Source: Escherichia coli
GTDB taxonomy: Bacteria > Pseudomonadota > Gammaproteobacteria > Enterobacterales > Enterobacteriaceae
Length of the DNA stretch: 64,000 nucleotides
Reading direction: 5' to 3' (one strand)
NCBI RefSeq assembly: GCF_024223415.1
Contig: NZ_CP100500.1
Shown: positions 6,424 to 48,235 of the stretch, piece by piece
Layout of the letters: every line of letters starts with the position of its first letter
Position numbering within the stretch: the first letter of the stretch is position 1
The notes under the pieces: model-generated
The model's database searches: none
Told to the model about the DNA's origin: nothing
Seen by the model: the letters and a program-made list of their open reading frames with translations, nothing else
Position numbers and translations under genes: made by a program

Positions 6424-6821
6424 ACTGTTATATGGCGAATGACAGCAAAGGCCATTTTGTTACGGCGAAAGAAGCAGCGAAGCACAACCGCCAGGACGTT
6501 TTGTGCTGTGTGTCCTGTGGATGCCCGTTAACACTTCAGCGGGGCAATGACGGACAACCACCGTGGTTTGAACATGACCAGATGACTGTCGCTGAGAAAA
6601 TCCTGCTGCGATGCACCTGGCTTGACCCGGCAGAGAAAGAGGCCCGTCGTTTGCATCTGCAGGGTATGACGGTTCCGGATTATACGGTGAAGGTGAGAAA
6701 GTGGTTTTGTGTGATGTGTGACGAAGATTATGAAGGAGAAAAGTGCTGCCCGCGTTGTGGTACCGGGGTATACAGCAGGGAGGGGGGGCTGCAGGAAGGC
6801 AACTGGAAGGATAGGAACTGA
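6411..6821 (+). CDS. Cys-rich hypothetical protein B, paralogue of A, translationally coupled
   Basis: ATG at 6411 lies just upstream of the stop of the previous ORF (6421-6423); same Cys/PWFEH pattern. Confidence 0.55.
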   Translation: MRILNCYMANDSKGHFVTAKEAAKHNRQDVLCCVSCGCPLTLQRGNDGQPPWFEHDQMTVAEKILLRCTWLDPAEKEARRLHLQGMTVPDYTVKVRKWFCVMCDEDYEGEKCCPRCGTGVYSREGGLQEGNWKDRN

Positions 6822-7024
6822 GCGGTTCAGTCGCGGAAATCAGTTGCAGAGCTGTAATGATATCTCCGGGAGTGCTGCGTTGGTAGGGGCATCCCGGGAT
6901 AGAGAAATTTTAGCACTTTGCCCTGAATGATTGTAGACGTTCCGAGTACTCGTACCGGTCTGAGTTATTACAGTTAGATATTCACTTTTTCTCCCGCATA
7001 CTTCACATCTGTCAACGACGGATG

Positions 7025-8757: not shown

Positions 8758-8766
8758 GCACTGTTC

Positions 8767-9095
8767 GTGACAGTATGGCCTTTATGTACTCACTTTGTTA
8801 CCGGTAGCTGGATCATCACTACCGTGCTGCAAATGGTGGTGAACAGCATCAATTGTGGAATGAATGTTGCCGAAGCGACCAATGCGCCTCGTTTCCACTA
8901 TCAGTGGTTGCCGGACGAGCTGCGTGTTGAAAAGGGTTTAGTCCGGATACGCTCAAGCTGCTGGATGCAAAAGGTCAGAAAGTGGCGCTGAATGAGGCGA
9001 TGGGCAGCACGCAAAGCATTATGGTTGGGTCGGATGGTGAGTTGTACGGCGCATCCGACTCGCGCTTGGTGGATGATTTAACGGCGGGGTATTAA
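8767..9095 (+). pseudogene. ggt: gamma-glutamyltranspeptidase C-terminal fragment, frameshifted in an A-run near 8935
   Basis: GSWIITTVLQMVVNSI...NAPRFHYQWLPDELRVEKG then, after a 1-nt frame change, FSPDTLKLLDAKGQKVALNEAMGSTQSIMVGSDGELYGASDSRLVDDLTAGY; starts directly at the ISL3 right end. Confidence 0.7.
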
Positions 9096-9134
9096 TTGAC
9101 ATCCCCCGGCGCAATGTGCCGGGGGATAATGGTT

Positions 9135-10169
9135 TTATGCGGTCAATAATCGTCCGGGATTATCGATACAGAGTTTTTTGAGGATCGTTTTATCGACGCC
9201 GCGCTCCGCCAGATAGGCCAGAAAAACATCTGGAACAAATCCCCAGCCATTACCGCCATTTTTAGCCCACATTTGTTTAAGGAAGACATCGTGGCTGAGA
9301 ACAAGCTGATCGGCGTATCCCAACTCAATGAGATGAGCGACGGCATCGGCAGTCTCCTGCACCCCTGGCGCTATTCCCTCTTTCGGGAAGGTAATGTCTA
9401 GGCCAATCATGTCGAATTCCAGCCAGACACCTTTATCAAGCATTTTCCGCTGATACGCCACGTCTTTTCCTGACGGATCCGAGTGTGCGAGAGAGACTTT
9501 ATTTGGCGAGACGCCCATTTCACCTAACACAATGTCGAGTACTTCATCACCGCGACGAAGCCAGCCCGGCATGTGAATATTCATCGCCACATGAGGATTG
9601 TTAATCTGTGCCAGCGAGGCAGCCCGCAAGCTGTTATGCTCGGCTTCGGTAAATGTCGGTGAAACACCTATTTCACCGATCATTCCGGCACGAATATCCG
9701 TATCGCCAATCCCTTGATTCAATTCTTTATCGATCGTTGTCGCCAGTTCATCAACCGTTTTATGAATTCTCTGGCTTTCAAATTTTTCCAGGTAGGGACC
9801 GGAGGAAGCAACAATATTCAGACCTGTTTTTAATGCGACTTCTCGTAATGCCTGCGCATCTCGTCCGATAGACTCAGACCCTGTGGCATCAATAATGGTG
9901 CGACCACCGAGCGAGATAAAGTTATTGATTTCGAAGATCACATCTTCAATAGGTTTGCGGTCCATATTATCAGCGCAGCAATAAGGATCGTGTTTTAATG
10001 CCCACTGGATTTCTGCCGTGACTTTTTTATCAACAAGCCGTTGTGAAAAAGGATAGCAAGGAGCATCCACAACAGAGGAAAGATCGTTGAACAGATGTTC
10101 ATGAGGAAGTGTTAGCCCCATATCTTCACGGGCGACGGGGCCCGTCACAGTTTGTAGATAATCTTTCAT
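9135..10169 (-). CDS. phosphotriesterase-family metal-dependent hydrolase (Php-like, TIM-barrel amidohydrolase; possible lactonase)
   Basis: 344 aa; N-terminal GLTLPHEHL metal-binding motif characteristic of the PTE family. Confidence 0.8.
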   Translation of the reverse strand: MKDYLQTVTGPVAREDMGLTLPHEHLFNDLSSVVDAPCYPFSQRLVDKKVTAEIQWALKHDPYCCADNMDRKPIEDVIFEINNFISLGGRTIIDATGSESIGRDAQALREVALKTGLNIVASSGPYLEKFESQRIHKTVDELATTIDKELNQGIGDTDIRAGMIGEIGVSPTFTEAEHNSLRAASLAQINNPHVAMNIHMPGWLRRGDEVLDIVLGEMGVSPNKVSLAHSDPSGKDVAYQRKMLDKGVWLEFDMIGLDITFPKEGIAPGVQETADAVAHLIELGYADQLVLSHDVFLKQMWAKNGGNGWGFVPDVFLAYLAERGVDKTILKKLCIDNPGRLLTA

Positions 10170-10171
10170 GA

Positions 10172-11137
10172 TTATACCTCCATTTTCTTCATTGTTTTCG
10201 AGGTTCTGTATTCCGGAATAGTGGTAACAATTGCACCGACCAGTGCAAACAGTGTTCCGATGATCGTGACCAGATAAACGCTATTGCCCAGCGATGGAAT
10301 TAATACGTCAATCAATACTGATCCCAGTAACTGGCCCGCCGTTGAAGCAACCCCCAGCATCAGTAACCCCAGACCTCTGACCAAAATGGCCATTAAACCG
10401 ATAGACATTAGTCCAAGCGGGCCGCCAAGATACATCCACCAGACATCTGGTAATTGAACAGTGACGTGCCCTAATGCGACACGAATAGCAAGCGCTGTGC
10501 CTAAAACACAAAATCCAACGATGAAATTCTAGGTGATTGAAACCAGCATGGATCCCGTAGCTTCAGCTACTTTTGCATTTCCAGCGGGCTGCCATCCTGC
10601 AAGCAAACCAGCTAAGAACGGAAGAATGGCAAGTAAGATGAAAGAGGTAGAATGCCACTGAGGTGACACAACAAAAATCGTAGCAATAACCGCAAATAAT
10701 GCACCGATGATGCAATAAGGGGTAAAGTATTTTTTCTCGTCGACACCGATACCAAAGCGATCGCAAAGTAAACCAGACAGCAATAGCGCGGAGATCAGTG
10801 CGGTTTGAAACGTTGCGACCCCGAGTGCGCTGGCTGATGCGCCTTCAGAAAATACCACCATCGCTCCACAGAGACCGGCAAACCAGTTCCAGAGAGGAAC
10901 TTTTCGGTTTTTAATCAGAGAAGGAATTGCCGCAAATTGTTGCCGGGTTTCTTTTCGCGCCATAATAATAAAAAACATCACGACTAAACCACTGGCAAAG
11001 GAGATAACTGCGCATGCATTACCATCCTGTAACCAGTGACCTAATTGACCATTCACCGCTGATTGCATAGGGGAGAGCATACCCGCAAGAATCGTGGCAA
11101 GCATCCATAAGGGAGTTGAGTACTTATTCTTTTTCAT
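10172..11137 (-). pseudogene. DMT-superfamily (DUF606/YdcZ-like) membrane transporter interrupted by an in-frame amber codon at 10529-10531
   Basis: ORFs 10529..11137 and 10172..10435 are in the same frame; the sequence between them encodes hydrophobic helix-like residues; the single TAG (plus-strand cta) separates them. Confidence 0.7.
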
Positions 11138-11193
11138 ACATCAATCCTTCTATTATAGTAAATGGAGTAACTGGAGTTACCCCATTATTATTA

Positions 11194-11952
11194 TTATCTT
11201 GCAATATGAGTCAGTATATTTACCCACAACGCGGTATAGAACGGCCAGGACATAAACTGCTGTGTACCCCAGTGCGGTGAACAGTCACTCATAAAGCAGG
11301 CTATTTTCCCGTTGTGATAGTTACCAAAGACCAGTAATGGAGCGTTGTTTATTGTTAATACCACCTCAGCATTTTCTTTAGCGATCGCCCGGTTATAACC
11401 TAGGAAAAAAGGATATTCAGAGAACCCTTTAATAACTGGATGTTCAGGTTGTGATGGCTGTGCAATAACACCCTCTGGTTTTTCGACACGATCGTCACCA
11501 TCTAACATCGTAACCGGGAGCACATCAGCCAGAACTGTATTTTTATAATTGGCTTTTGCTTCAATTCCCATGAATGAGAGATAGCCGCCAATCATCAATA
11601 ACCCACCACCGTTATTCACATATTCTTTAATCAGTTCGAGAGCGTTTGGTTTTATGCGAAGCTGATAAAAAGTATCATTTTGTAGCAGGAAAGTATTACT
11701 ACCAATATCACTAATAACGATGGCATCATATTGTTCTAACTGTGCCACATCTTCAGGGAAGGCAATTTGTACCGTATGTGCTGGCATATAGGTGACATCT
11801 ACCTGACTATTTTTCAGACACTGGAGTAACCAGGTCGCACCTTCTTCATATTTACTTGAGGTAAAACTGTCATATCCTTTTGAATGAATCATATGAATAT
11901 GCCAGGATTCCCCAATAAAGAGCACTTTTAGTGATTTTTTGGTGTTATTCAT
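11194..11952 (-). CDS. ThuA-like / class I glutamine-amidotransferase-like domain protein
   Basis: 252-aa ORF; fold assignment from sequence impression only. Confidence 0.45.
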   Translation of the reverse strand: MNNTKKSLKVLFIGESWHIHMIHSKGYDSFTSSKYEEGATWLLQCLKNSQVDVTYMPAHTVQIAFPEDVAQLEQYDAIVISDIGSNTFLLQNDTFYQLRIKPNALELIKEYVNNGGGLLMIGGYLSFMGIEAKANYKNTVLADVLPVTMLDGDDRVEKPEGVIAQPSQPEHPVIKGFSEYPFFLGYNRAIAKENAEVVLTINNAPLLVFGNYHNGKIACFMSDCSPHWGTQQFMSWPFYTALWVNILTHIAR

Positions 11953-11965
11953 TCTCTGTCCCTTC

Positions 11966-13180
11966 TTAATGCGTAAAAATAGTTTGCTGATAATGTATAC
12001 TCTGAATTCGATGTATCACAGATTCATGTTCAGGCATGTCGGAAGCATTGCTTGTCTCCACCGCTAGGGATGCAAAGGCGCTGGCATAACACAGTGCTGA
12101 TTCCAGTGATTTTCCTTTCGCAAGTCCTGATGCCAGAGAGCCGTTAAACGCATCCCCGGCTCCTGCCGTATTTTTAACGACCGCTGGAAACGCTGGCGAA
12201 TGAATGAATTTTTTGCCATCAAATGCGAGCGAGCCCTTGCTACCGAGCGTGATAACCGTGTTTTTTACCCCTTTATTGTGGATAGCTTCTGCAGCTCGTT
12301 TAGCTGATTCAAGATCGTGTACGTCTATGCCGGACAGTAAACCAGCTTCTGTTTCATTGGGGGTGATATAATCAACATCCTGAATAAGTTCGTTGACGAT
12401 ATCATTATAGGGTGCCGGGTTAATAATGACCGGGATACTGTTTTTTTGCGCCAATGTGATCGCTTGTTGCAGAGCGGTATAATTTGTTTCGAGCTGCAGA
12501 AGTATGACATCAGAATTAATAATCGCTTCTTTCTGAATAGTTATTTCATCGGACGACATTGTCATGTTGGCACCGGGATAGATCGCAATAACATTATCGC
12601 CAGTACCTTCATTAACAAGGATCGTGGCAGTTCCGGTTTGCGTTTCTTTCGTTTGATAAATTATACTTTTATAAATCTTAGACGAATTCATAAAGTTGAT
12701 CGCATAATCACTAAAGTGATCTGTACCTACTTTTGTTATGAAATAAACATCAGTATCGGCAAAGCTTGCTGCCAGCGCCTGGTTACAGCCTTTTCCCCCC
12801 GGTGAAAATATAAAATTACTTGCCAGAAGCGATTCTCCGATAGTGGGAAGCCTCGGCAAATAACTGATGATATCAACATTAAACGAACCAATAACGCATA
12901 CTTGACTTTTCATAGTTGAGTGGCCTTTTTTTATTCCCTGGGCTGTATCATAATTTTCAAGCGCATAAGCGATTTCATTTTTCGCAATAGTATCAAGCGA
13001 GTCTAGGACGATAAAAGCACCGCCATGACATCGAGTCAGATAGCCAAGCCTGGCAAGTTCATTAAGATCTGAACGAATAGTTTCTTTCGTTACATTGAGG
13101 CTATTGGACAGATCGGATACTTTTACAGAACCGAATTTACTGAGTCGTTTCAATATTTCATGATGGCGTTCAAATTTCAT
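11966..13180 (-). CDS. fusion protein: N-terminal DeoR-type HTH plus PfkB/ribokinase-family carbohydrate kinase
   Basis: N-terminus HHEILKRLSKFGSVKVSDLSNSLNVTKETIRSDLNELARLGYL (DeoR HTH); kinase motifs GGKGCNQA and NTAGAGDAFNGSLASGL. Confidence 0.7.
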   Translation of the reverse strand: MKFERHHEILKRLSKFGSVKVSDLSNSLNVTKETIRSDLNELARLGYLTRCHGGAFIVLDSLDTIAKNEIAYALENYDTAQGIKKGHSTMKSQVCVIGSFNVDIISYLPRLPTIGESLLASNFIFSPGGKGCNQALAASFADTDVYFITKVGTDHFSDYAINFMNSSKIYKSIIYQTKETQTGTATILVNEGTGDNVIAIYPGANMTMSSDEITIQKEAIINSDVILLQLETNYTALQQAITLAQKNSIPVIINPAPYNDIVNELIQDVDYITPNETEAGLLSGIDVHDLESAKRAAEAIHNKGVKNTVITLGSKGSLAFDGKKFIHSPAFPAVVKNTAGAGDAFNGSLASGLAKGKSLESALCYASAFASLAVETSNASDMPEHESVIHRIQSIHYQQTIFTH

Positions 13181-13287
13181 GCTTCACCTCACTTCAGTTA
13201 CGTTAATATCTATCGATGTATATTGATGTGATAATCACCATAAAGTGGCGGGGAAAAGCAAAAAAAAGCAAAAATAGCCTGAGAAAA

Positions 13288-13850
13288 GGTAAGCGTTAAT
13301 GGAGAATCATATTGATGCTTATTTATTGGTGAGAACTACGTTCCATGGCAGGAGTTCATCAATACGGTTGGAAGGTTATTCCGGCAGTACGCTCAGGATA
13401 TGGCGCAGATACGCTTCCGGATCAATGTCGTTCAGAAGGCAAGTGCCGATAAGCCCATACAACAGTGCACTGCGCTCGCCGCCGAAGAACATAAAGTTTT
13501 TATTTCCGAGACAGATGGCACAAAGGGCTTTTTCCGCGGCATTATGTCTGCCTCCGCCTGACCGTCAACACTGTAATAACAGAGTGCGCCCCACTGATTC
13601 AGTACACAGCTGAACCATTCTCCCAGTCTGGATTTTTGGATAGCGTGGCATTTTTCTCCACCATGCATGCAGTGAGTCCAGTAACAGTTTGCTCTTCTTC
13701 TGCCTGACCACAAGATGTGCTGGACTGGTAAACGATGGGGATACCTGCTTACGCGAGAGCAATAAGTGGCTGGCCACAATTCTCGGTACAAAACTCTGCT
13801 GAATAGCAGCGATTTTCCCAGCGTGGTGCGTCGTTTTCATTTTACTGGTT
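13288..13850 (-). mobile_element. IS66-family remnant: terminal repeat (GTAAGCG at 13288) plus frameshifted 3' part of a transposase gene
   Basis: Minus-strand translation near 13327-13380 gives PSNRIDELLPWNVVLTNK*, resembling the IS66 transposase C-terminus; upstream frames are broken. Confidence 0.6.
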
Positions 13851-15230
13851 CTAAGTTAACAATTATCTGTTCACTAATGACTACTCTAAAAACTTGTATC
13901 AGGACTATCACTTATTTAAGTGATATTGGTTGTCTGGAGATTCAGGGGGCCAGTCTATAAACTTTTTACAAAAGGATGAATGCAGAAGGTTACTCTAATG
14001 GCCAGAGTGATGACAATGATGGTCAGACGTTGACCTGCAGAAACTGCATTTTAATTGGTCTATAAAGTCTGCAAGAGGAATCAGGGTCAGATCAGTGAGT
14101 CTTATCGCGGCCCGAAGCTATGACTGAAAGAAGGCTGGATACAGAATTGCAACAATTTGGCAATGTCAGAACACAGAAGCTTTGCAAGCAGGTGAAAGGT
14201 TATGTCTAGCAAAAGGAGTATATCAGAATACATCTACTGATGTACAAAACACAACAATAGCTTCATGATATATAAATACGTGATGACGAGTGGTACTCCG
14301 CATGGTTATTTAACTTCTCAGCACCACTAATGATCCTGAGCAACTTCGTATTTGGGCCATTGCCATGGAGTAGAAAGCTGTGTCTGAGAATGCAGAATTT
14401 GAGAAAAGAATTCGCTTTCTTGGAGAGCTTCTGAAAATGGCACGCTAACAACGTTTTGTTAAAAAATGTGAATCACTTGCCGGGGCTGCATTTTCTATTC
14501 GAGGAGAATGTTGACGTAGATATTACAGAAATCTCAGCGCATCAGGATAAACTGCTACCTTAGGTCAACCACCAAAAGAAAATACAATACGTCCAGTTTG
14601 TATGCCTTTAATAACACATCTTCTAAATGTTGAAGAATTATCCCGCCTGCTGAAGAACGTTGCTCTGAGTGTGATAAACCTTTTTATTCTTGATGATGTC
14701 AGCGAGAAGATGGAATATATCCCCGACTGGGTCGTGGTTACCCGGTTAAACATCTGGTGGCGCTAATAAATCTGGCAAGTCACATTCTGTTGAATGCTGT
14801 GACAGTGCCTTACCGAGAGAGCGAAATTGTGGTGTTCTAGTGCATAGTCGCCACCATTCCGGATAATTCTATTGCGTTGTTTTACAAGTTCTTTTACAGC
14901 GCAGATCTGTTGCTGACGTTGAATCAATAGCCTGGATTTCAGAACACAATGCCCGTTTGCTGGTTGGTCCGGCAGTAGCATTAATTCATTATCTGAATGA
15001 AATGTGTCAATCCACAGAAACCGCTGTCAATGACACATTTTGTCGGACGTTAACACGAGAAAGTCTGGCTATTCCGTAATGCCATCTTATTTCGTAATGG
15101 ATTGAGAATGCTGGATTTTTAATTATATTACGCGCAGTATTAATCGCGTAAATGTTTTGCGGTCAGCAACGGTGGGGGATCCATTGTTCTGTTCAATGAA
15201 TACCATCATACATTTGAATCAGGAGTCGGT

Positions 15231-18625: not shown

Positions 18626-18655
18626 AAAAAGCCTGCTCGAAAGCAGGCTTTTTTG
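18626..18655. terminator. bidirectional Rho-independent terminator hairpin between ldtA and asnV
   Basis: aaaaagcctgctcgaaagcaggctttttt. Confidence 0.7.
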
Positions 18656-18659: not shown

Positions 18660-18735
18660 TGGCTCCTCTGACTGGACTCGAACCAGTGACATACGGATTA
18701 ACAGTCCGCCGTTCTACCGACTGAACTACAGAGGA
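18660..18735 (-). tRNA. asnV: tRNA-Asn (GUU)
   Basis: Reverse complement matches the E. coli tRNA-Asn sequence including CCA. Confidence 0.95.
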
Positions 18736-18990
18736 ATCGTGTGAACGGGGCGCATATTAATGGCAGTGCATGGTGATGTCAAAGGGTGAAATGCATTTTT
18801 TTGTTTGTTTGCTGCCAATTTCAACAAAGTGGTGAGCTTTCAATCTTATTGGGTAATGAACCATCGTGGTGCATACCCTCCTTTTATAGGGCAGGTGAAT
18901 GCGACTGCAGATAAAAAGAGCCAATGACGAATCTATCATAATCTCTTATTTGACAGTTGGTTAGCTTGCGCATCAACGCCAAAATAGAAC

Positions 18991-19006
18991 TGGCAAGCAT
19001 CTTGCA
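18991..19006 (+). promoter_or_regulatory. sigma-54 promoter (-24/-12 element) for nac
   Basis: TGGCAAGCATCTTGCA fits TGGCAC-N5-TTGCA with correct GG-N10-GC spacing, about 55 bp upstream of the nac ATG. Confidence 0.7.
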
Positions 19007-19061
19007 TTCTGGTTGTAAGTAATGGCGGCACTTGGGCCGACTCTTAAAAACCGGAGGCAAC

Positions 19062-19979
19062 ATGAACTTCAGACGCCTGAAATACTTCGTAAAAATTGTA
19101 GATATTGGTAGCCTGACCCAGGCTGCTGAAGTATTGCATATCGCACAACCAGCGCTCAGCCAGCAGGTTGCCACACTGGAAGGTGAGTTTAATCAACAAC
19201 TTTTGATTCGCACAAAACGGGGCGTTACGCCAACTGACGCCGGAAAAATTCTCTATACCCATGCGCGGGCCATTTTACGTCAGTGTGAGCAGGCCCAACT
19301 GGCGGTGCATAACGTTGGTCAGGCATTATCGGGGCAAGTCTCGATTGGCTTTGCGCCAGGAACCGCTGCGTCATCCATCACCATGCCCTTATTACAGGCG
19401 GTTCGCGCTGAATTCCCGGAGGTCGTTATCTATCTTCATGAAAATAGCGGTGCAGTGCTTAACGAAAAACTGATAAATCACCAACTCGATATGGCGGTGA
19501 TTTATGAGCATTCCCCTGTGGCTGGTGTATCCAGTCAGGCTTTACTGAAAGAAGATCTTTTCCTGGTAGGGACTCAAGATTGTCCGGGGCAAAGCGTTGA
19601 TGTTAATGCTATTGCGCAAATGAACCTCTTTCTTCCCAGTGATTACAGTGCTGTTAGACTTCGTGTTGATGAGGCTTTTTCCCTACGGCGACTCACGGCA
19701 AAAGTCATTGGTGAAATTGAGTCTATTGCCACGCTTACCGCAGCGATTGCCAGCGGCATGGGCGTTGCAGTATTACCCGAATCGGCCGCGCGTTCGTTAT
19801 GTGGCGCAGTAAACGGGTGGATGTCACGCATTACCACACCTTCCATGAGTCTCTCTTTGTCATTAAATTTACCCGCCAGAGCGAACTTATCACCACAGGC
19901 ACAGGCAGTGAAAGAGTTGTTAATGTCAGTGATGAGTTCTCCAGTGATGGAAAAAAGGCAGTGGCAATTGGTGAGCTAA
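19062..19979 (+). CDS. nac: nitrogen assimilation control protein, LysR-family regulator
   Basis: 305 aa, MNFRRLKYFVKIVDIGSLTQAAEVLHIAQPALSQQV. Confidence 0.95.
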   Translation: MNFRRLKYFVKIVDIGSLTQAAEVLHIAQPALSQQVATLEGEFNQQLLIRTKRGVTPTDAGKILYTHARAILRQCEQAQLAVHNVGQALSGQVSIGFAPGTAASSITMPLLQAVRAEFPEVVIYLHENSGAVLNEKLINHQLDMAVIYEHSPVAGVSSQALLKEDLFLVGTQDCPGQSVDVNAIAQMNLFLPSDYSAVRLRVDEAFSLRRLTAKVIGEIESIATLTAAIASGMGVAVLPESAARSLCGAVNGWMSRITTPSMSLSLSLNLPARANLSPQAQAVKELLMSVMSSPVMEKRQWQLVS

Positions 19980-20080
19980 GCGTTATATCGGGATGGAATA
20001 AGATGCGGGTTTTTATTATTTGTTATGCCGGGCATTAGACTTTAACAATAACGGAAAATCTGAACTGCCCGGAGTTTACC

Positions 20081-21031
20081 GTGAATTTCCAACAACTAAA
20101 GATAATCCGCGAGGCTGCACGTCAGGATTACAACCTGACAGAGGTTGCGAATATGCTTTTTACCTCACAGTCCGGCGTCAGCCGTCATATTCGGGAACTG
20201 GAGGATGAACTTGGCATCGAAATATTTGTTCGACGAGGTAAGCGACTGCTGGGCATGACTGAACCGGGCAAAGCATTACTGGTCATTGCTGAACGTATTC
20301 TGAATGAAGCCAGTAATGTTCGTCGGCTTGCAGACCTGTTTACCAACGATACGTCTGGCGTTCTCACTATTGCAACGACGCATACTCAGGCACGTTATAG
20401 TTTGCCAGAGGTCATTAAATCTTTTCGCGAACTTTTCCCGGAGGTTCGGCTCGAGCTAATCCAGGGGACGCCACAGGAAATTGCGACGTTGTTGCATAAT
20501 GGTGAAGCTGATATTGGTATCGCCAGCGAGCGTTTGAGTAATGACCCGCAGCTCGTCGCCTTCCCGTGGTTTCGTTGGCACCATAGTTTGCTTGTTCCAC
20601 TCGATCATCCCTTGACGCAAATTACACCATTGACGCTGGAATCAATAGCGAAGTGGCCGTTAATCACTTACCGACAGGGGATTACGGGGCGCTCACGTAT
20701 TGATGACGCATTTGCCCGCAAAGGTTTGCTGGCAGATATTGTATTAAGTGCGCAGGATTCTGATGTCATTAAAACCTATGTTGCTCTTGGGCTTGGGATC
20801 GGAATAGTTGCCGAACAATCCAGCGGTGAACAAGAGGAAAAGAATTTAATCCGCCTGGATACGCGGCATCTTTTTGATGCTAATACTGTCTGGTTGGGAC
20901 TGAAGCGAGGACAACTTCAGCGTAACTATGTCTGGCGCTTTCTGGAACTTTGTAATGCAGGGCTTTCAGTTGAGGATATCAAGCGGCAGGTGATGGAAAA
21001 CAGTGAAGAGGAAATTGATTATCAGATATAG
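20081..21031 (+). CDS. cbl: CysB-like LysR-family regulator
   Basis: 316 aa, MNFQQLKIIREAARQDYNLTEVANMLFTSQSGVSRHI. Confidence 0.95.
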   Translation: MNFQQLKIIREAARQDYNLTEVANMLFTSQSGVSRHIRELEDELGIEIFVRRGKRLLGMTEPGKALLVIAERILNEASNVRRLADLFTNDTSGVLTIATTHTQARYSLPEVIKSFRELFPEVRLELIQGTPQEIATLLHNGEADIGIASERLSNDPQLVAFPWFRWHHSLLVPLDHPLTQITPLTLESIAKWPLITYRQGITGRSRIDDAFARKGLLADIVLSAQDSDVIKTYVALGLGIGIVAEQSSGEQEEKNLIRLDTRHLFDANTVWLGLKRGQLQRNYVWRFLELCNAGLSVEDIKRQVMENSEEEIDYQI

Positions 21032-21033
21032 CA

Positions 21034-21060
21034 AAAAGCCCGCTATAAAAGCGGGCTTTT
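21034..21060. terminator. Rho-independent terminator after cbl
   Basis: aaaaagcccgctataaaagcgggctttt. Confidence 0.7.
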
Positions 21061-21068
21061 CAGAAATT

Positions 21069-21144
21069 TGGCTCCTCTGACTGGACTCGAACCAGTGACA
21101 TACGGATTAACAGTCCGCCGTTCTACCGACTGAACTACAGAGGA
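21069..21144 (-). tRNA. asnU: tRNA-Asn (GUU)
   Basis: Identical sequence to asnV. Confidence 0.95.
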
Positions 21145-21304
21145 ATCGCTGTTGAGGCACATCTTAACGGCGAAAAATCTTTTGTCAAACCCGATTTTTA
21201 ATTTTCCCAACTGTTTGCCGTTTCTATCAACAGTTTGTTGCATTTGCAGACAATTTGTTGGCGAAAATCTTTGCAGCTTTGCTGATTCTCCCTCATTATT
21301 TGAA

Positions 21305-22792
21305 ATGTGGTTTCACTTTCTGCAATTAAGGTCGGCTTTGAATATCTCCTCTGCTTTACGCCAGGTTGTTCACGGCACTCGCTGGCACGCTAAACGCAAG
21401 AGCTACAAAGTGTTGTTCTGGCGCGAGATAACCCCGCTTGCTGTTCCTATCTTCATGGAGAATGCCTGTGTCCTGTTGATGGGGGTTCTGAGCACTTTTC
21501 TGGTCAGCTGGCTGGGAAAAGATGCGATGGCCGGCGTGGGATTGGCGGACAGCTTCAATATGGTCATTATGGCTTTTTTTGCTGCTATCGATCTTGGTAC
21601 TACTGTCGTTGTGGCATTTAGTCTCGGTAAGCGGGATCGACGACGAGCGAGGGTGGCGACGCGGCAGTCATTGGTGATCATGACGTTGTTTGCCGTACTG
21701 TTGGCAACGATTATTCATCATTTTGGCGAGCAAATTATTGATTTTGTCGCGGGTGATGCCACGACAGAAGTTAAAGCACTGGCGTTGACTTATCTGGAGC
21801 TGACGGTACTCAGTTATCCAGCAGCTGCCATCACTTTGATTGGTAGCGGGGCACTTCGTGGTGCAGGGAATACGAAAATACCGCTACTGATTAACGGTAG
21901 CCTGAATATTCTTAATATTATTATTAGCGGCATATTGATTTACGGCCTTTTCTCCTGGCCGGGACTGGGATTTGTCGGGGCTGGGTTGGGGTTAACCATT
22001 TCTCGTTATATTGGCGCAGTGGCAATTTTGTGGGTGCTGGCGATTGGTTTTAATCCTGCGCTAAGGATTTCGTTAAAGAGCTATTTTAAACCGCTGAATT
22101 TTAGCATTATCTGGGAAGTCATGGGGATTGGTATTCCCGCGAGTGTCGAATCAGTGTTATTTACCAGTGGTCGGTTATTAACCCAAATGTTCGTTGCCGG
22201 GATGGGGACCAGTGTTATTGCCGGAAATTTTATCGCGTTTTCAATTGCGGCTCTTATCAACTTACCCGGAAGTGCGCTCGGCTCTGCTTCTACGATCATT
22301 ACAGGCCGAAGGTTGGGTGTAGGACAGATAGCGCAAGCAGAGATTCAGTTGCGGCATGTGTTCTGGCTTTCCACTCTTGGATTAACGGCCATCGCCTGGC
22401 TAACGGCTCCCTTTGCCGGGGTTATGGCATCGTTTTACACCCAGGATCCACAGGTTAAACATGTCGTTGTGATTCTGATTTGGCTAAATGCTTTATTTAT
22501 GCCTATTTGGTCTGCCTCATGGGTGCTACCCGCTGGATTTAAGGGTGCTCGCGATGCACGTTACGCCATGTGGGTTTCTATGTTGAGCATGTGGGGTTGC
22601 CGGGTTGTAGTCGGTTATGTGCTGGGAATCATGCTTGGCTGGGGTGTGGTTGGTGTCTGGATGGGAATGTTTGCCGACTGGGCTGTGCGGGCCGTGCTGT
22701 TTTACTGGCGAATGGTTACTGGACGTTGGCTGTGGAAATATCCTCGACCTGAGCCGCAAAAGTGTGAAAAAAAGCCAGTTGTGTCGGAATAA
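21305..22792 (+). CDS. yeeO: MATE-family efflux transporter
   Basis: 12-TM MATE-like protein; start placed at the internal Met giving 495 aa (the ORF track extends further upstream to 21152). Confidence 0.85.
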   Translation: MWFHFLQLRSALNISSALRQVVHGTRWHAKRKSYKVLFWREITPLAVPIFMENACVLLMGVLSTFLVSWLGKDAMAGVGLADSFNMVIMAFFAAIDLGTTVVVAFSLGKRDRRRARVATRQSLVIMTLFAVLLATIIHHFGEQIIDFVAGDATTEVKALALTYLELTVLSYPAAAITLIGSGALRGAGNTKIPLLINGSLNILNIIISGILIYGLFSWPGLGFVGAGLGLTISRYIGAVAILWVLAIGFNPALRISLKSYFKPLNFSIIWEVMGIGIPASVESVLFTSGRLLTQMFVAGMGTSVIAGNFIAFSIAALINLPGSALGSASTIITGRRLGVGQIAQAEIQLRHVFWLSTLGLTAIAWLTAPFAGVMASFYTQDPQVKHVVVILIWLNALFMPIWSASWVLPAGFKGARDARYAMWVSMLSMWGCRVVVGYVLGIMLGWGVVGVWMGMFADWAVRAVLFYWRMVTGRWLWKYPRPEPQKCEKKPVVSE

Positions 22793-22892
22793 ACGACAAA
22801 GTGCAGATTATTTCAGCAAACGATTTCAAATTTAAAAAACAGGCTTTGACATTGTGGATGAGCGTCGCTAATATTCGCCTCGTTCTCACGAT

Positions 22893-22968
22893 TCCTCTGT
22901 AGTTCAGTCGGTAGAACGGCGGACTGTTAATCCGTATGTCACTGGTTCGAGTCCAGTCAGAGGAGCCA
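22893..22968 (+). tRNA. asnW: tRNA-Asn (GUU)
   Basis: TCCTCTGTAGTTCAGTCGGTAGAACGGCGGACTGTTAATCCGTATGTCACTGGTTCGAGTCCAGTCAGAGGAGCCA. Confidence 0.95.
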
Positions 22969-23029
22969 AATTTTAGTTTTGAGATATCTCTATAAGTCTC
23001 AAAACAGTTAAAAAATAAAAATTATTTTT

Positions 23030-23067
23030 ACCCGGCCGCTTTGTAAAAAAAAGTGGCCGGGTTTTTT
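23030..23067 (+). terminator. Rho-independent terminator downstream of asnW
   Basis: acccggccgctttgtaaaaaaaagtggccgggtttttt. Confidence 0.6.
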
Positions 23068-23423
23068 GATTTCTGTGTTTCGTGCGCTTAATCGAGTCTC
23101 ACGCTTCAGTGAGCAAATTGCCCCTCCCCAACAGACATCACGATTCACAGGGTCAAAAATTCTGTTCCATGAAGTACCGTACAAAGATAAAGAGAAAAAT
23201 GCCTTATGCGGGATGTAGCTGTCGCGTCTTTATCGGGAAACTATACGTAATTGCCACTTTGTCTTCGGTAATCAGAAAAAGAAGACCTGGAATTTTAATA
23301 AATATTATTTCTCTGGGGGCGGTATTTTTATAATCAATATGACGAGTTGAACATTATATTTATTATAAGAATTATATGAAATTAAAGAAATCTGCCATAA
23401 AGACAGATTTCTTTAAAATATAA

Positions 23424-24140
23424 TTAGAGATTTGCGACGTTATGATAAACTTTTTGAACATCGTCGTCATCTTCAAGGGCATCAACAAGCCCTTCAAAGA
23501 TTTCTAAATCTTCTGGGGAAAGCTCAACTTCAGATTGAGCAATCATTTCTAATTCTGTTGTTGAGAACTCAGTGATTCCAGCAGCTTTTAGAGCCGCGAT
23601 TCCTTTATGAAGGTCAGTAGGTTCAGTATAAATAACAATATTACCTTCTTCTTCAGTTACATCACGAACATCAACTTCAGCTTCAAGTAAAATTTCAAAA
23701 ATATGGTCAGGGTCTGTTCCTTTAAATACAATCACACCCGTATTGTCAAACATATAGCTGACAGAACCTGCCGCTCCGATATTGCCGCCTTTTTTATTGA
23801 AAATTGTGCGAACGTTAGCAATCGTACGGTTAACATTTGAAGTCAAGGTCTCGGCGATAATCATTGAGCCATTAGGACCAAAGCCTTCATAACGGCCCTG
23901 CACGAACGTTTCATCTCCGCCGCCTTTGGCTTTATCAATTGCTTTATCAATAACATGCTTTGGAACTTGTGCCTGCTTTGCTCGTTCAATAACGAATTTT
24001 AAAGATGTGTTTAATTCTGGATCGGGTTCACCTTGTTTGGCAGCAGCATAGATTTCTACACCGAATTTTGCATAAATTTTAGACGTCGCACCGTCTTTAG
24101 CCGTTTTTTTAGCAACAATATTGGCCCATTTACGTCCCAC
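23424..24140 (-). CDS. yeeN: YebC/PmpR-family probable transcriptional regulator
   Basis: 238 aa, [27 protein letters not shown]. Confidence 0.9.
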
Positions 24141-24481
24141 TGGAATGATCTCCTCGAAAATTTATTTACATTACTGGTAAATCGTTAACATGTGTTAATT
24201 CGGCATATTATATCATAACAGGAAAAATCTCGTCTATTAGAAATAAAAATATTCTAAATCCATAATCTTATATTTAATCTCATAAAAACTAATGTTGTTG
24301 GCGGATTTTTTTATAATTGTGTTTTGAAAGCATACTTGCTTTTAATATGTGGAAATCATTAAGGCTATAATAAAACTCGCATCTGCCCAAGGAAGCAAAC
24401 AGCCTGCTTTATTGCAGGCTATTTGCTGGATGACTTACTAAATCCTTCACATCTATTCCTGATAAAAAGGAACAGAACTTA

Positions 24482-25936
24482 TTACCGGAACGGCGGTTCA
24501 TTAAAGGTTCGTAATTTACGTGAATGCAGTCGGTCGCCTTCTGCGCGCAGCAAATCGATCGCCCGAATGCCAATTTGCAGGTGTTCGGAAATAGCGCCTT
24601 CATAAAAACGGTTAGCCTGACCGGGAAGTTTAATCTCACCATGCAACGGTTTATCTGAAACACACAGTAGTGTCCCGTATGGCACGCGGAAACGATATCC
24701 TTGCGCGGCAATGGTTGCACTTTCCATATCAATTGCTACGGCCCGGCTTAAGTTAAAACGAAGTGCAGAAGCTGAGTAACGTAATTCCCAGTTCCTGTCA
24801 TCTGTGGTTACCACAGTGCCAGTACGTAGCCGCTGTTTAACTTCCTCACCGGGCCTGCCGCTGACTAACTTGGTAGCGTCATAAAGCGCACGTTGCACTT
24901 CAGCAATGCTCGGAATAGGAATATCGGGCGGCAGTACCGCATCAAGAACGTGGTCATCGCGTAAATAAGCGTGTGCAAGTACATAATCTCCAATGGCCTG
25001 GCTTTCACGTAAGCCACCACAGTGACCAATCATCAACCAGACATCCGGGCGTAGTACTGCCAGATGATCGCAGATGGTTTTAGCATTTGACGGTCCCACG
25101 CCAATATTCACCAGAGTAATACCCTGACCATCGGCGGTAATTAAATGCCATGCTGGCATCTGGTGTTTTTTCCATGCAAGGTCGGAAATGGCTTCTTCTG
25201 GCGCTTCGGTTTCGGCGGTGATCCAGTTCCCGCCAGCACAAGAAAGGGCAATGTAGGGACTATCAGGATCGAGGATCTGGCTGCATCCCCAACGAACGAA
25301 TTCATCCACATAACGTGTGTAGTTGGTAAACAAGACGAACGGCTGAAAATGTTCAACTGGCGTACCGGTATAATGGCGCAACCGCGCGAGGGAAAAATCG
25401 ACGCGGCGCGCATCAAAATGCGATAGCGGGGAGAATTCCGTTGGATGATAAATGCCGTCTGCAGTTTCATCGCCAATTTGCGCCAGTTCTGTTGTCGGGA
25501 AGTAGCGAGTTAACCCAGCGCTCATTGAGCGATCAAGGGTCAATTCTGAGCCATCGATGACATAAGGATAAGGGATTTCATGCTGCGAGGGTTGCACCGA
25601 GATATGCGCACCATAATCCTGATACAGCAACGTAAGTTGTTCATTGAGATACGAACGAAAGAGAGTAGGGCGAGTAATCGTGGTGGTGTAGCTGCCTGCG
25701 TGGGTAAAACGACCAAATGCGCGCGTTTTGGGGGGATTGGTTGTGCTACCGTCCCAGGTTACGGTCAGTGATGGATAGACAAAAAGACCTTGTTTGCGGG
25801 CGTTTTCATCAGGTAATTCGCCACTTTTAATATATTTGCCAATGGCGTTGCGTAAAGCGACTACAGATTGCTCATACAGCGCGTCGAGTTTATCCAGTGC
25901 CTGAGCTGGGGTCAGACCGGAGCCCTTATTATTCAT
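24482..25936 (-). CDS. amn: AMP nucleosidase
   Basis: 484 aa from the internal Met MNNKGSGLTPAQALDKL. Confidence 0.9.
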   Translation of the reverse strand: MNNKGSGLTPAQALDKLDALYEQSVVALRNAIGKYIKSGELPDENARKQGLFVYPSLTVTWDGSTTNPPKTRAFGRFTHAGSYTTTITRPTLFRSYLNEQLTLLYQDYGAHISVQPSQHEIPYPYVIDGSELTLDRSMSAGLTRYFPTTELAQIGDETADGIYHPTEFSPLSHFDARRVDFSLARLRHYTGTPVEHFQPFVLFTNYTRYVDEFVRWGCSQILDPDSPYIALSCAGGNWITAETEAPEEAISDLAWKKHQMPAWHLITADGQGITLVNIGVGPSNAKTICDHLAVLRPDVWLMIGHCGGLRESQAIGDYVLAHAYLRDDHVLDAVLPPDIPIPSIAEVQRALYDATKLVSGRPGEEVKQRLRTGTVVTTDDRNWELRYSASALRFNLSRAVAIDMESATIAAQGYRFRVPYGTLLCVSDKPLHGEIKLPGQANRFYEGAISEHLQIGIRAIDLLRAEGDRLHSRKLRTFNEPPFR

Positions 25937-26037
25937 GTGTGTCTCCTGTTCCATACAATTACCGCACATCCGATAGTATGTCACAGGAATGTGAAACAAA
26001 AGTGTAAGGCGAAGATCGGATGATCTTCGCCAGGCTA

Positions 26038-27354
26038 TTAAGCGCGTTGATTGTCTTTCATCAACAAAGCGGTCATTGCGGAAATCAGGCATCCAGCCAG
26101 CAAATAAATGGCGACGCTATGCCAGTTCCCCGCAAAGTAAGTGATGAGTGCAGCGGCAATGAAAGGTGTAAATCCACCGCCAACCACACTGGCAACCTGA
26201 TATCCGACTCCAGCGCCACTATAGCGATAACTGGCACCAAACATTTCGGTAAACATCGGTTGTTGTACACACACCACCATGTCATGCGCAATGTTTGCCA
26301 GCATTATGGAGAAGAAAACTATCCAGAAAATAGATTGTGCTTCAAGCGCCATAAAGAAAGGAAATGCGCTCAACGTTCCGATTAACGCACCTGTGATATA
26401 AACCCTGCGGCGACCAAAACGATCGGCAAGCCAGGCAAAACAGGGAATTGTCAGGCAGCTTAATCCACCTACCAGCAAACCAATATTGAGGAAAAGTTCG
26501 CGCGGTAACCCCATATTCTGGGTTGAATAATTAAGTGCGAAGGCGGTAACGATGTACATCGTCAGCAACTCGCACAGTCGTAGCGCAATAATCTTCAGGA
26601 AAGCACCGGGATGTCGTAATAGTGCTTCGATAACCGGGATGCGTTTTTTCGCGGCCGCTTGATTATGTTGCTGTTGTTCAAATTCCGCGGACTCCTCCAT
26701 GCCATTACGCACCCACAATGCTCCCAGTACCAGTACGATGCTAAACAGGAAAGGAATGCGCCAGCCCCAGCTTAAAAACTGTTCGTCAGTCGTCATCATA
26801 CTGATCAATGAAACCAGTCCGGTTGAAAGCAGTAAACCTACACCGTAGCCAACTTGTACACCGCTACTGTAAAAGGCTTTTTTATTTTTCGGAGCACTTT
26901 CAACGGAAAGCAACGCTGCGCCTCCCCATTCGCCGCCGACGGCAAATCCCTGAATGGCACGCAGCGTCACCAGTAAAATGGGGGCCCACCACCCAATGGT
27001 CGAGAAGGAAGGAAGAATACCAATCAAGGCTGTCGCGATACCCATCATCCAGACGGTCAGCATTAACATGCGTTTACGTCCCAGTCGGTCGCCAAAGTGA
27101 CCGAAAATGACACCGCCGAGCGGACGGAACAGGAATCCGACACCAAAGGTGGCAAATGCGGCGAGCGTTCCCATAGCAGGGCTTACTTGCGGGAAAAACT
27201 CGCGATTAAACACCAGTGCGGCGGTAATGCCATAGAGTAAAAAATCATACCAGTCGACGACGGCACCAGCGAAACTGCCTAACGCAGCTCGTCGGGCGCG
27301 ACTTAACGAAAGCGTCCCTTCATCGGGACGAGTGGAGATGAGCGTGGAGTCCAT
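26038..27354 (-). CDS. shiA: shikimate:H+ symporter (MFS)
   Basis: 438-aa MFS transporter in the expected position. Confidence 0.9.
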   Translation of the reverse strand: MDSTLISTRPDEGTLSLSRARRAALGSFAGAVVDWYDFLLYGITAALVFNREFFPQVSPAMGTLAAFATFGVGFLFRPLGGVIFGHFGDRLGRKRMLMLTVWMMGIATALIGILPSFSTIGWWAPILLVTLRAIQGFAVGGEWGGAALLSVESAPKNKKAFYSSGVQVGYGVGLLLSTGLVSLISMMTTDEQFLSWGWRIPFLFSIVLVLGALWVRNGMEESAEFEQQQHNQAAAKKRIPVIEALLRHPGAFLKIIALRLCELLTMYIVTAFALNYSTQNMGLPRELFLNIGLLVGGLSCLTIPCFAWLADRFGRRRVYITGALIGTLSAFPFFMALEAQSIFWIVFFSIMLANIAHDMVVCVQQPMFTEMFGASYRYSGAGVGYQVASVVGGGFTPFIAAALITYFAGNWHSVAIYLLAGCLISAMTALLMKDNQRA

Positions 27355-27596
27355 AATGATCCTGTTTGTACTGTCTTTTTATAATTAGTATGGAAAAGGT
27401 AACTCACATTGCCGTCGATCTATAAACGAACCTTATGAGACTACCTCGACAGAGCGCATCTGCAAATGATTTTATGGCTGATTAACGGCAACATGAAAAA
27501 TTCGATGGAAGATGAAAGCGCAGGAGTTGCATAAGGATTAAGCAGGGCACCTACAGTTTTGAGATATGAAACATAAAAGTCCGCATATGCACAAAA

Positions 27597-28712
27597 TTGC
27601 CCCCTGATGATTCTGATAGACTGCATTGCATTATAACCAGTAGGGAGGCGAGGTTAATTATGTTTTTAGCATCATTGTTGAGACGTATTGCATTTAGTTA
27701 CTACGATTATAAAGCTTATAATTTCAATATTGAAAAAACAGACTTTGTTGTTATCCATATTCCCGATCAAATTGGCGATGCTATGGCCATCTTTCCAGTT
27801 ATTCGGGCGCTTGAAATGCATAAAATTAAGCGTCTTTTAATTGTTACTTCGACAATTAATTTAGAAGTCTTTAATACGCTCAAACTTGAACAGACTAAAT
27901 TAACATTAGTCACAATGACTATGCAGGATCACGCAACATTAAAAGAAATAAAAGATTTAGCGAAGAACATAACACAGCAATACGGTACGCCGGATCTTTG
28001 TATAGAGGCGATGCGTAAAAAGAACCTGAAAACGATGTTATTTATCAGTCAGTTGAAAGCAAAAACGAATTTTCAGGTAGTCGGTTTAACCATGCAGTGC
28101 TATTCCCCTTTGTGTAAGAACGCGTCCCGGATGGATCAGCATCTCAGGGCTCCCGTACCCATGACATGGGCATTTATGATGCGTGAGGCGGGTTTTCCAG
28201 CAGTCAGGCCAATATATGAATTGCCATTAAGCGAGGATGTACTCGATGAGGTGCGCGAGCAAATGCGATCGTTAGGATCTTACATTGCGCTTAATTTAGA
28301 AGGTAGCTCGCAGGAGCGTACATTTTCATTATCGATTGCAGAAAATCTAATAGCAAAAATTCAAAGTGAAACAGATATGCCAATAGTGATCGTTCATGGA
28401 CCCAAAGGGGAAGATAAAGCCAGGGTATTAGTGGATTGTTATAATAATGTCTTCCGTTTATCCTTATCATCCTCGATTAAACGTTCGGCAGCAATCATAA
28501 AAGATGCTTATATCGCAATAACTCCTGACACCTCAATATTACATATGGCAAGTGCCTATAATACCCCCGTTGTTGCAATTTATGCTGATTACAAAACGCG
28601 ATGGCCCGCAATGGCCGATGTCTCGGAGTCAGTCGTCGTTGGACAAAAAATTGACAATATAAGTCTGGATGAATTCGCAAAGGCATTAAAAAGTGTTTTG
28701 TCGAGAATATGA
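27597..28712 (+). CDS. yeeL: glycosyltransferase family 9 (heptosyltransferase-like) protein; apparently intact here
   Basis: Continuous 371-aa ORF (start uncertain, possibly internal Met); position between shiA and yeeJ. Confidence 0.65.
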   Translation: MPPDDSDRLHCIITSREARLIMFLASLLRRIAFSYYDYKAYNFNIEKTDFVVIHIPDQIGDAMAIFPVIRALEMHKIKRLLIVTSTINLEVFNTLKLEQTKLTLVTMTMQDHATLKEIKDLAKNITQQYGTPDLCIEAMRKKNLKTMLFISQLKAKTNFQVVGLTMQCYSPLCKNASRMDQHLRAPVPMTWAFMMREAGFPAVRPIYELPLSEDVLDEVREQMRSLGSYIALNLEGSSQERTFSLSIAENLIAKIQSETDMPIVIVHGPKGEDKARVLVDCYNNVFRLSLSSSIKRSAAIIKDAYIAITPDTSILHMASAYNTPVVAIYADYKTRWPAMADVSESVVVGQKIDNISLDEFAKALKSVLSRI

Positions 28713-28971
28713 GGAGTACTTATGCATAGTAGTACCGAACTGTTATGAACGGTGGTGTCATCAATACTCTGAGGCTGGTCAATCATCACAGAAAGCCAGC
28801 CTTTGGATCAAAGCAATACTCACCAAATACGATCATAGTCACACCGAACGCGATTCAGGTGGTGCCGTATTGTTATTTATTCATTTTCTTTGAGAGAGGG
28901 CAAGCTCTATAGTGGGAATGTAAAAAAGAGTGCCCCGAATGGAGCACTCTTTAAGAAATTATAGCGGAAAA

Positions 28972-37638
<8,667 letters not shown>

Positions 37639-37875
37639 TATGATTGAAAATTAATAACTTTTCGTTAAGCAGTTTTGGGTGTGAGTTGCAAGAGGGGAGA
37701 CTACTGAATTACTCAAGTTTTGTAATCGAGGGGAAAATGGTGATGGCGTTCATAGCAAAACGCCCTCAACCATAAAGGTCGAGGGCGCTTAAGATGTCAA
37801 AAACCCGCTATCCGTTAAAAAGCAATGCTCAACTAAGGTCAGTGACATTGCGCTAAAAAGCGAATTTTTAGAATT

Positions 37876-37951
37876 TGGCTCCTCTGACTGGACTCGAACC
37901 AGTGACATACGGATTAACAGTCCGCCGTTCTACCGACTGAACTACAGAGGA
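37876..37951 (-). tRNA. asnT: tRNA-Asn (GUU)
   Basis: Identical to asnV/asnU. Confidence 0.95.
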
Positions 37952-38051
37952 ATCGTGAGAACGGGGCGCATATTACTTAGCGGTACCTTGTCTGTCAACA
38001 CTAAATTTCATAAGTCATTTCAATTGGTTAATTAATCCGCAAAGTTGTTAA

Positions 38052-38942: not shown

Positions 38943-39032
38943 GGAGAGATGCCGGAGCGGCTGAACGGACCGGTCTCGAAAACCGGAGTAGGGGCAACTC
39001 TACCGGGGGTTCAAATCCCCCTCTCTCCGCCA
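38943..39032 (+). tRNA. serU: tRNA-Ser (CGA)
   Basis: GGAGAGATGCCGGAGCGGCTGAACGGACCGGTCTCGAAAACCGG...CTCTCCGCCA, long variable arm, anticodon CGA. Confidence 0.9.
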
Positions 39033-39701
39033 CTTTATCAATGACTTATCTCCCGACTTACCGCCTTGCTTTTCCTAAACAGAACAATCGTAGAATATTC
39101 TTGAAGGGTTAGATCGTCACTGTTTTCTGTTCGATACTGTGACATTCAGCACTTGATTCGCTATGGATCTGACAGGAAGGTTTCGAGCGAAAATCTGCAG
39201 TTATTCAGTCGTTTTCTTATCGGTCACCATTATTCTTTTAGACATTGATCCTACGAAGCTGCCGCAAAGTTGGTGGTGGGAACTGAAGTTGCGTAGAGAA
39301 GGGGTCAATAATTGAGCCAAAAAAGGAACGCGGCCGTCAGATTAAAGCCGCGGGACAAAGTCCATAATTTCCAAGAGTTGTTGAATTTCCCAGCTTTTTT
39401 GAAAGCCTTTGTATCATACTAACAAGTAAAAAAGGTTTAAATACCAAAATTAACCTATATTTCTGGTTAGCTTTACCATGACAGATGACTTGCTCCTGGA
39501 GACATTGGCGCTGCCAGTCTGTATTGGTGAGTTGTGTATTTATTGTTCGCCGCTTTCTCGGTTTTTTTCTACAGACATAATAAAAAAGACACGTCTCAAG
39601 CATGAGCGTGTCTGAGTTTGTTTTATTTATTTGTCTTGGTAAATTATTGTCGTTACTACCAGGCACTGTTCTGTTAAATAATTGAAGTCAGCGCAAAAAA
39701 A

Positions 39702-47671: not shown

Positions 47672-48235
47672 TATGTATTCCCTTGTGATTATAATCTTCA
47701 TGGATATATCAATAAGTGCCGTTATCCAAAAAAGCACATTTGGATACTATTCTATGAAGTTCATTTTATTTTAAGGGTTACATGTAACAAATGTATTTAA
47801 AAGATTTCAAAATGTTTCCAATCTATTTAATATAATTCAGAATTATGAATTCTAGATATAAGCATTCATGAGATTTATAAATATATATCAATATGTTATG
47901 AGTTAATCGGAAAGATAGGGAGTATCAATGAGTGTTGCGCTAAACGGCTGGTGTGATCACGCGCATATTAATGAAGGCATAAAAAAAAGCCGGCATCATG
48001 CCGGCCCAAAAAATATAAACAAGACGATAAAAGGCTAATAACGGGGTTATCATGACACAGAAATCAAAAAAGGTATAATTGAATTCGGTGCTAATATATT
48101 GTTTAGGTGAATTAATAAAACCATTACCATAGATAATAATAAATCTTTATTGCTGTTTTTCCGGTAATTATTGCCATTGCGCAAAAATTATCTATTTGTT
48201 CAAAAAATGATTGAGTCTTGACTGGCTCATCCAAT

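Follow-up and report, generated by a model that had tools for sequence, protein, structure and literature searches.

A standard asnT-asnW-asnU-asnV cluster with four unoccupied tRNA-Asn genes in Escherichia coli, and inversion of the yeeO segment between two of the copies in other strains

The closest described counterpart of the locus analysed here is the asnT-asnW-asnU-asnV cluster of E. coli K-12 MG1655 (b1977, b1984, b1986 and b1989). In other E. coli the same four genes are the attachment genes of islands with P4-type integrases, i.e. the HPI at asnT, the pks island at asnW, asnU or asnV, and small defence or RHS islands. Auvray et al. 2021 (PMC8209727) report asnW, asnU or asnV as the insertion site of pks and a fixed location of the HPI at asnT; an inverted asnW-asnU-asnV region also occurs in pks-positive B2 strains (PMC8209727). 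In another study, Russell et al. 2019 (PMC6458436) found a dynamic asnW/asnV inversion within UTI89 cultures and validated it by PCR, noting an orientation difference between CFT073 and UTI89 for which Ou et al. 2006 is cited. This published inversion of the 4.3-kb asnW-asnU-asnV region (pks-positive B2 strains, UTI89) uses the same kind of substrate as is considered here, namely identical tRNA-Asn copies in inverted orientation, whereas the preliminary description of the present locus proposed a smaller, asnU/asnW inversion that turns yeeO only. Earlier publications cover the locus itself, its function as a hotspot of integration and the asnV/asnW inversion.

The DNA analysed is a stretch of 64,000 nucleotides, referred to as the window. 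ARAGORN identifies five tRNA genes in it, four tRNA-Asn(GTT) and one tRNA-Ser(CGA), and the Rfam tRNA model RF00005 scores each Asn copy at 72.6 bits (gathering score 29). Together with the segments between them, these genes are:

18660-18735, minus strand: asnV, tRNA-Asn(GTT), 76 nt (ARAGORN, Rfam, alignment); between ldtA and nac as in K-12; site empty
19062-21031, plus strand: nac (19062-19979) and cbl (20081-21031), between asnV and asnU
21069-21144, minus strand: asnU, tRNA-Asn(GTT), 76 nt (ARAGORN, Rfam); left arm of the inverted pair around yeeO; site empty
21145-22892, plus strand: yeeO-bearing segment between asnU and asnW; yeeO is a MATE exporter, RefSeq-equivalent CDS 21305-22792
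22893-22968, plus strand: asnW, tRNA-Asn(GTT), 76 nt (ARAGORN, Rfam); right arm of the inverted pair; site empty
22969-23423, no strand: asnW-yeeN spacer, 455 bp; seat of asnW islands in other strains
23424-37638, no single strand: core genes from asnW to asnT, i.e. yeeN, amn, shiA, a GT9 gene (yeeL, intact) and yeeJ (2888-aa ORF)
37876-37951, minus strand: asnT, tRNA-Asn(GTT), 76 nt (ARAGORN, Rfam); HPI site in other strains; site empty
38943-39032, plus strand: serU, tRNA-Ser(CGA) (ARAGORN, Rfam); 1 kb beyond asnT

The coordinates, the strands and the 19.3-kb span previously noted for the four tRNA-Asn genes were exact, with 19,292 bp spanned from asnV to asnT, and the names asnV, asnU, asnW and asnT proved correct based on the gene order of K-12 MG1655. 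The window runs as the reverse complement of the K-12 orientation. Its gene order is that of K-12 (mtfA-asnT-yeeJ-yeeL-shiA-amn-yeeN-asnW-yeeO-asnU-cbl-nac-asnV-ldtA-cobTSU), and a comparison of the ES5 and K-12 annotations places the four genes between mtfA and yeeJ, yeeN and yeeO, yeeO and cbl, and nac and ldtA. Over the 23 kb around the genes, identity reaches 99.8% with E. coli ES5 and MB50 and is about 97% with many other genomes; in ES5 the order reads cobU-cobS-cobT-ldtA-tRNA-Asn(-)-nac-cbl-tRNA-Asn(-)-yeeO-tRNA-Asn(+)-yeeN-amn-shiA-GT9-yeeJ-like-tRNA-Asn(-)-mtfA-tRNA-Ser-zinT. When this 23-kb region was used as a query, 730 genomes covered 80% of it in one place, a low count for which yeeJ is probably responsible. 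Some differences from K-12 were noted. The yeeJ ORF of the window (27597-37638) encodes 2888 aa and exceeds the 7020-nt CDS of K-12 in length, the GT9 glycosyltransferase gene yeeL, a pseudogene in K-12, is intact in the window, and yodB, which takes up about 1 kb in K-12, is missing near serU, with some 230 bp of unrelated sequence (window ~39480-39700) in its stead. To the left of cobU, a variable block is found here and the CP4-44 cryptic prophage in K-12.

Some further features of the window were recorded alongside. The gene serU, 1 kb past asnT, was absent from the preliminary description. It also looks unoccupied, since its 3' flank follows the K-12 sequence colinearly over the first ~450 bp; its 25-nt and 16-nt 3' ends each occur once in the window by exact search. 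Rfam additionally places rseX at 47982-48071 on the minus strand (97.8 bits) and DsrA at 56406-56492 on the plus strand (102.5 bits), both expected K-12 neighbours and unrelated to the tRNA-Asn genes. The cumulative GC skew climbs along the plus strand of the window, and therefore asnV, asnU and asnT on the minus strand would be head-on to replication, with only asnW on the plus strand co-directional.

The four 76-nt tRNA-Asn sequences are identical, as had been claimed and as is borne out by an alignment of all four copies and a scripted identity check. This is not a matter of chance, because already the 25-nt 3' portion of the gene has 0 expected matches in shuffled sequence. Beyond the genes, the copies remain identical for another 4-12 nt upstream and 4-5 nt downstream, and any two of them therefore share 84-92 bp of exact repeat. 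The flanks had been described as similar as well, which holds for the promoter hexamers and the few adjoining bases; the rest of the flanks diverge, with an ungapped identity between copies of 14-37 out of 60 nt upstream and 18-25 out of 60 nt downstream. For asnU, the identity of the flanks to those of the other copies is near chance.

All four copies have a perfect TTGACA -35 hexamer, combined with a -10 hexamer TAATAT or, in asnU, TAAGAT; from the end of the -10 hexamer to the mature 5' end, the distance is 18-19 nt, or 16 nt in asnU. The promoter and terminator sites below are consensus or motif matches, and their functional status is putative:

18626-18653, minus strand: terminator-like hairpin directly 3' of asnV (sequence motif)
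18754-18782, minus strand: asnV promoter-like site, TTGACA, 17 nt, TAATAT (consensus match only)
21033-21060, minus strand: hairpin and T-run 3' of asnU (sequence motif)
21161-21188, minus strand: asnU promoter-like site, TTGACA, 16 nt, TAAGAT (consensus match only); within the invertible segment
22846-22874, plus strand: asnW promoter-like site, TTGACA, 17 nt, TAATAT (consensus match only); within the invertible segment
23030-23067, plus strand: terminator-like hairpin 3' of asnW (sequence motif)
37756-37788, minus strand: GC-rich hairpin and T-run ~90 nt 3' of asnT (sequence motif)
37970-37998, minus strand: asnT promoter-like site, TTGACA, 17 nt, TAATAT (consensus match only)

Each tRNA-Asn copy would thus have its own sigma-70-type promoter and a hairpin with a T-run downstream, and the four genes may be independent transcription units for the single tRNA-Asn(GUU) isoacceptor.

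The preliminary description held that none of the four tRNA-Asn genes carries an integrated element. From the 3' end of the tRNA to the next gene, the distance is 55 bp between asnV and ldtA, 37 bp between asnU and cbl, 455 bp between asnW and yeeN, and 237 bp between asnT and the yeeJ ORF. The spacing at asnU and asnV is the same as at the empty K-12 sites. For asnT and asnW, which are identical to K-12 across the tRNA, the comparison was made by base-level alignment: the 3' flank of asnT aligns base for base with the empty K-12 site, with scattered substitutions only, and the asnW-yeeN spacer is colinear with its K-12 counterpart apart from small indels and a few substitutions. The emptiness of asnU and asnV is read from the short gaps, the lack of repeats and the K-12-like order and spacing. 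Extra copies of the tRNA-Asn 3' end, searched both as the 17-nt att core (CCAGTCAGAGGAGCCAA) and as the 25-nt segment with up to 3 mismatches, were found nowhere in the 64 kb besides the four genes themselves, so that the scan for partial repeats left by att sites came out negative. No integrase is annotated from cobU to zinT in the near-identical ES5. As the 3' flanks are either too short to hold an integrase or match the empty sites of K-12, the sites are therefore empty, as they all are in K-12, where the flanks of asnT and asnW are colinear with those described here. An occupied site would be expected to show a tyrosine (P4-type) integrase gene no farther than about 200 bp from the tRNA 3' end, a 16-18 bp direct repeat of that end on the far side of the island, and extra DNA relative to an empty-site reference; at these four genes there is no integrase (as judged by the ES5 annotation), direct repeat or inserted DNA, and the claim of four unoccupied sites is upheld.

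To determine how common this state is, 901-bp queries centred on each tRNA were compared with 5,426 complete E. coli genomes. A junction was called intact when one place covered at least 80% of the query, and insertions below ~950 bp count as intact in the following figures, so that small ones would escape:

asnT junction: intact in 2,667 of 5,426 genomes (49%), interrupted at the tRNA in 51%
asnV junction: intact in 4,664 of 5,426 genomes (86%), interrupted at the tRNA in 14%
asnW junction: intact in 4,980 of 5,426 genomes (92%), interrupted at the tRNA in 8%
asnU junction: intact in 5,177 of 5,426 genomes (95%), interrupted at the tRNA in 5%

From these four separate counts, all four sites would be empty together in about 22% to 49% of the genomes. 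The empty state, which K-12 shares, is common. At asnT the match ends a few bases from the 3' end of the tRNA; the same holds for most of the rows sampled at asnU and asnV, and this pattern is typical of integration at that point. In others (e.g. H103, H104 and H184) the break is on the 5' side, and these reflect rearrangements. The occupied examples have a P4-type integrase gene on the 3' side of the tRNA, at a distance of about 160 bp. Strain SC455 carries an 8.9-kb island at asnV, with a P4-type integrase ~165 bp 3' of the tRNA, and at asnU a 6.6-kb island whose integrase is of the same kind; in the alignment made for this one example, the tRNA 3' end is repeated at the end of both islands, over 18 bp in one and 17 bp in the other. 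A 9.5-kb RHS island is found at asnU in 2014C-4423 and an integrase island at asnW in CREC-544. In SSGNw1, a pks island sits on the ldtA side of the tRNA at the yeeO 3' end, and the HPI is present as well. Interrupted junctions in 5-51% of the 5,426 genomes and integrase islands in the inspected examples bear out the earlier statement that these tRNA-Asn genes are used for integration in other E. coli. The 3' ends of the four genes serve as attachment sites for the P4-type tyrosine integrases of the HPI, pks and the small defence or RHS islands.

The copies are also of interest as repeats. With asnU on the minus strand and asnW on the plus strand, an exact 85-bp inverted repeat encloses the 1,748-bp yeeO segment, and this pair had been put forward as a substrate for inversion of yeeO. 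Synthetic hybrid junctions, in which the tRNA is preceded by the 5' flank of one copy and followed by the 3' flank of a different one, were used as search queries. The hybrid of the yeeO 5' end, the tRNA and the yeeN flank, diagnostic of the yeeO-only inversion (asnU/asnW), occurs in 34 genomes, or ~0.6% of complete genomes. The annotations of PSJ-36 and O157:H16 Santai both read cbl(+)-asn(-)-yeeO(-)-asn(+)-yeeN(-), so that yeeO points the opposite way from its orientation in the window. In PSJ-36, the one genome that was aligned, the strand switches within window positions 21064-21148 and 22888-22972, i.e. inside the 85-bp repeats. The idea of the inverted pair as a substrate is therefore corroborated by the hybrid junction in 34 genomes, by the order confirmed in two of them and by the PSJ-36 breakpoints. 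Both orientations of the asnW-yeeO segment occur among strains, and the window carries the common, unrearranged, K-12-like one. The 34 junctions come from many hosts and fall into at least five identity classes (95.8-96.5%), which suggests that the yeeO-only inversion arose more than once.

Some assemblers can place a 1.7-kb segment between short inverted repeats in the wrong orientation, and the 34 inversions are known from assemblies, so one could ask whether they are artefacts of the 85-bp inverted repeat at a locus that is not truly polymorphic. We consider this unlikely: the genomes were contributed by many laboratories from various hosts and countries, the junctions show the several identity classes just mentioned, the 85-bp repeat is shorter than a standard read, and the analogous asnV/asnW inversion has been validated by PCR (PMC6458436). 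In the literature searched, no description of the yeeO-only inversion was found; yeeO, asnU and inversion appear together only in the pks study and in an unrelated promoter survey. The inversion thus seems undescribed, and it is a minor, smaller-scale version of a published phenomenon.

Other pairs of copies have recombined as well, as indicated by the following hybrid junctions:

nac-tRNA-yeeN flank: asnV/asnW inversion, 265 genomes
yeeO 3' end-tRNA-ldtA flank, contiguous: asnV/asnW inversion without an island, 1 genome (SE15)
yeeO 5' end-tRNA-ldtA flank: nac-cbl deletion (asnV x asnU), 35 genomes
mtfA-tRNA-yeeN flank: 15-kb asnW/asnT inversion, 1 genome (ET5)

Nissle 1917, NU14, ABU 83972 and ATCC 25922, the strains recognised among the asnV/asnW-inversion matches listed, are presumably all pks-positive B2 strains. 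The presence of pks was confirmed for SSGNw1 only, the coordinates of which match those of Nissle 1917. The pks island of SSGNw1 has ldtA on one side and, on the other, the tRNA that adjoins the yeeO 3' end; the conventional 'asnW' pks site there has the 3' neighbourhood of asnV, following the asnV/asnW inversion. Because the copies are identical and recombine, naming a site after the neighbouring gene can mislead, an example being 'pks at asnW', which adjoins ldtA in Nissle-type genomes. The asnV/asnW inversion of other strains would make asnU co-directional with replication. As a separate observation, the linear 5,969-bp sequence NZ_CP196293.1 ('plasmid unnamed2' of AH21A060) corresponds to chromosomal yeeO'-asn-cbl-nac-asn-ldtA-cobT-cobS-cobU'. 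Rather than a plasmid, this is most likely a contig of the chromosome that was left unplaced, with breaks that may lie at the asn repeats.

The variable block to the left of cobU (window 1-15200) is IS-ridden and decayed and lies 3.5 kb past the asnV 3' end. It has IS66/ISEc22, cut by the window start, an HTH regulator, and IS66, IS4 and cbi remnants, and contains the following:

5157-5762, plus strand: YfjJ/inovirus-Gp2-like gene
6016-6821, plus strand: two DUF7828/zinc-ribbon ORFs
7105-8483, plus strand: ISL3 transposase pseudogene
9135-10169, minus strand: phosphotriesterase-related gene
10172-11137, minus strand: split DMT transporter
11194-11952, minus strand: glutamine amidotransferase
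11966-13180, minus strand: PfkB kinase

In some strains, pdu/pocR is found in place of this block. Its IS66, ISL3 and IS4 remnants, the YfjJ/inovirus-Gp2-like gene and the pseudogenes, together with the K-12 cryptic prophage CP4-44 at the same place, could be taken to mean that an island once attached at asnV has decayed here; equally, the AT-rich 455-bp asnW-yeeN spacer, with a GC content of 37.5% in window 23001-24000, might be what is left of an island at asnW. Such a remnant is very improbable and the reading is largely refuted. The spacer is colinear with that of K-12 and its junction is the one intact in 4,980 of the 5,426 genomes, the tRNA 3'-end repeat is found nowhere else in the window, and no integrase was found in window 1-15200. 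Moreover, the core genes ldtA-cobT-cobS-cobU separate the block from asnV and keep a fixed position in every genome inspected, including the pdu/pocR strains. The block was consequently rejected as an asnV-linked island, as it has neither an integrase nor an att repeat and core ldtA-cobTSU intervenes.

As for the mechanism of the rearrangements, the exact 84-92-bp repeats would make the copies substrates for homologous recombination. Inverted pairs (asnW with asnU, asnV or asnT) would flip the DNA between them, and the direct pair asnV and asnU would delete it. For the asnU/asnW pair, both promoter-like sites and yeeO are wholly inside the segment and both terminators are outside, and a crossover within the tRNA bodies would recreate two complete tRNA genes and leave yeeO intact. 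Since two intact tRNA genes and an intact yeeO remain, the yeeO inversion should be close to neutral, apart from its orientation relative to replication. The repeats are genes, no recombinase is nearby and the breakpoints fall in the repeats, which argues for RecA-type homologous recombination rather than an integrase as the probable route of the inversions; the pks-linked asnV/asnW inversion may be an integrase-mediated event. The least probable reading is that yeeO is a programmed invertible switch of the fim/hin type with a dedicated site-specific recombinase, for although both orientations are found in nature and the related asnW/asnV inversion is detectable in single UTI89 cultures (PMC6458436), there is no invertase or integrase at or near the segment in the window, the repeats are merely tRNA genes, the promoters travel with the segment so that no change in expression is expected, the flipped form is found in only 0.6% of genomes, and the UTI89 inversion arose without an overexpressed recombinase (PMC6458436); it was rejected.

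Based on these results, it can be said with high confidence that the window contains the standard asnT-asnW-asnU-asnV cluster, with all four 3' ends empty and with copies that are recombination substrates; none of the results speaks against this reading. The finding is real, correctly read and ordinary: the window shows a thoroughly studied hotspot of integration in its textbook, empty form. The window can therefore serve as a clean empty-site reference for scoring the HPI, pks and other islands at asnT, asnW, asnU and asnV, and the population counts of intact junctions, inversions and the nac-cbl deletion may help in typing these loci. In our view, the yeeO-only inversion is likely a real and recurrent natural polymorphism with several junction haplotypes, which together with the other rearrangements would make the tRNA-Asn copies a small hotspot of homologous rearrangement. 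Such a hotspot, if true, alters the orientation of the tRNA genes and of yeeO relative to replication.
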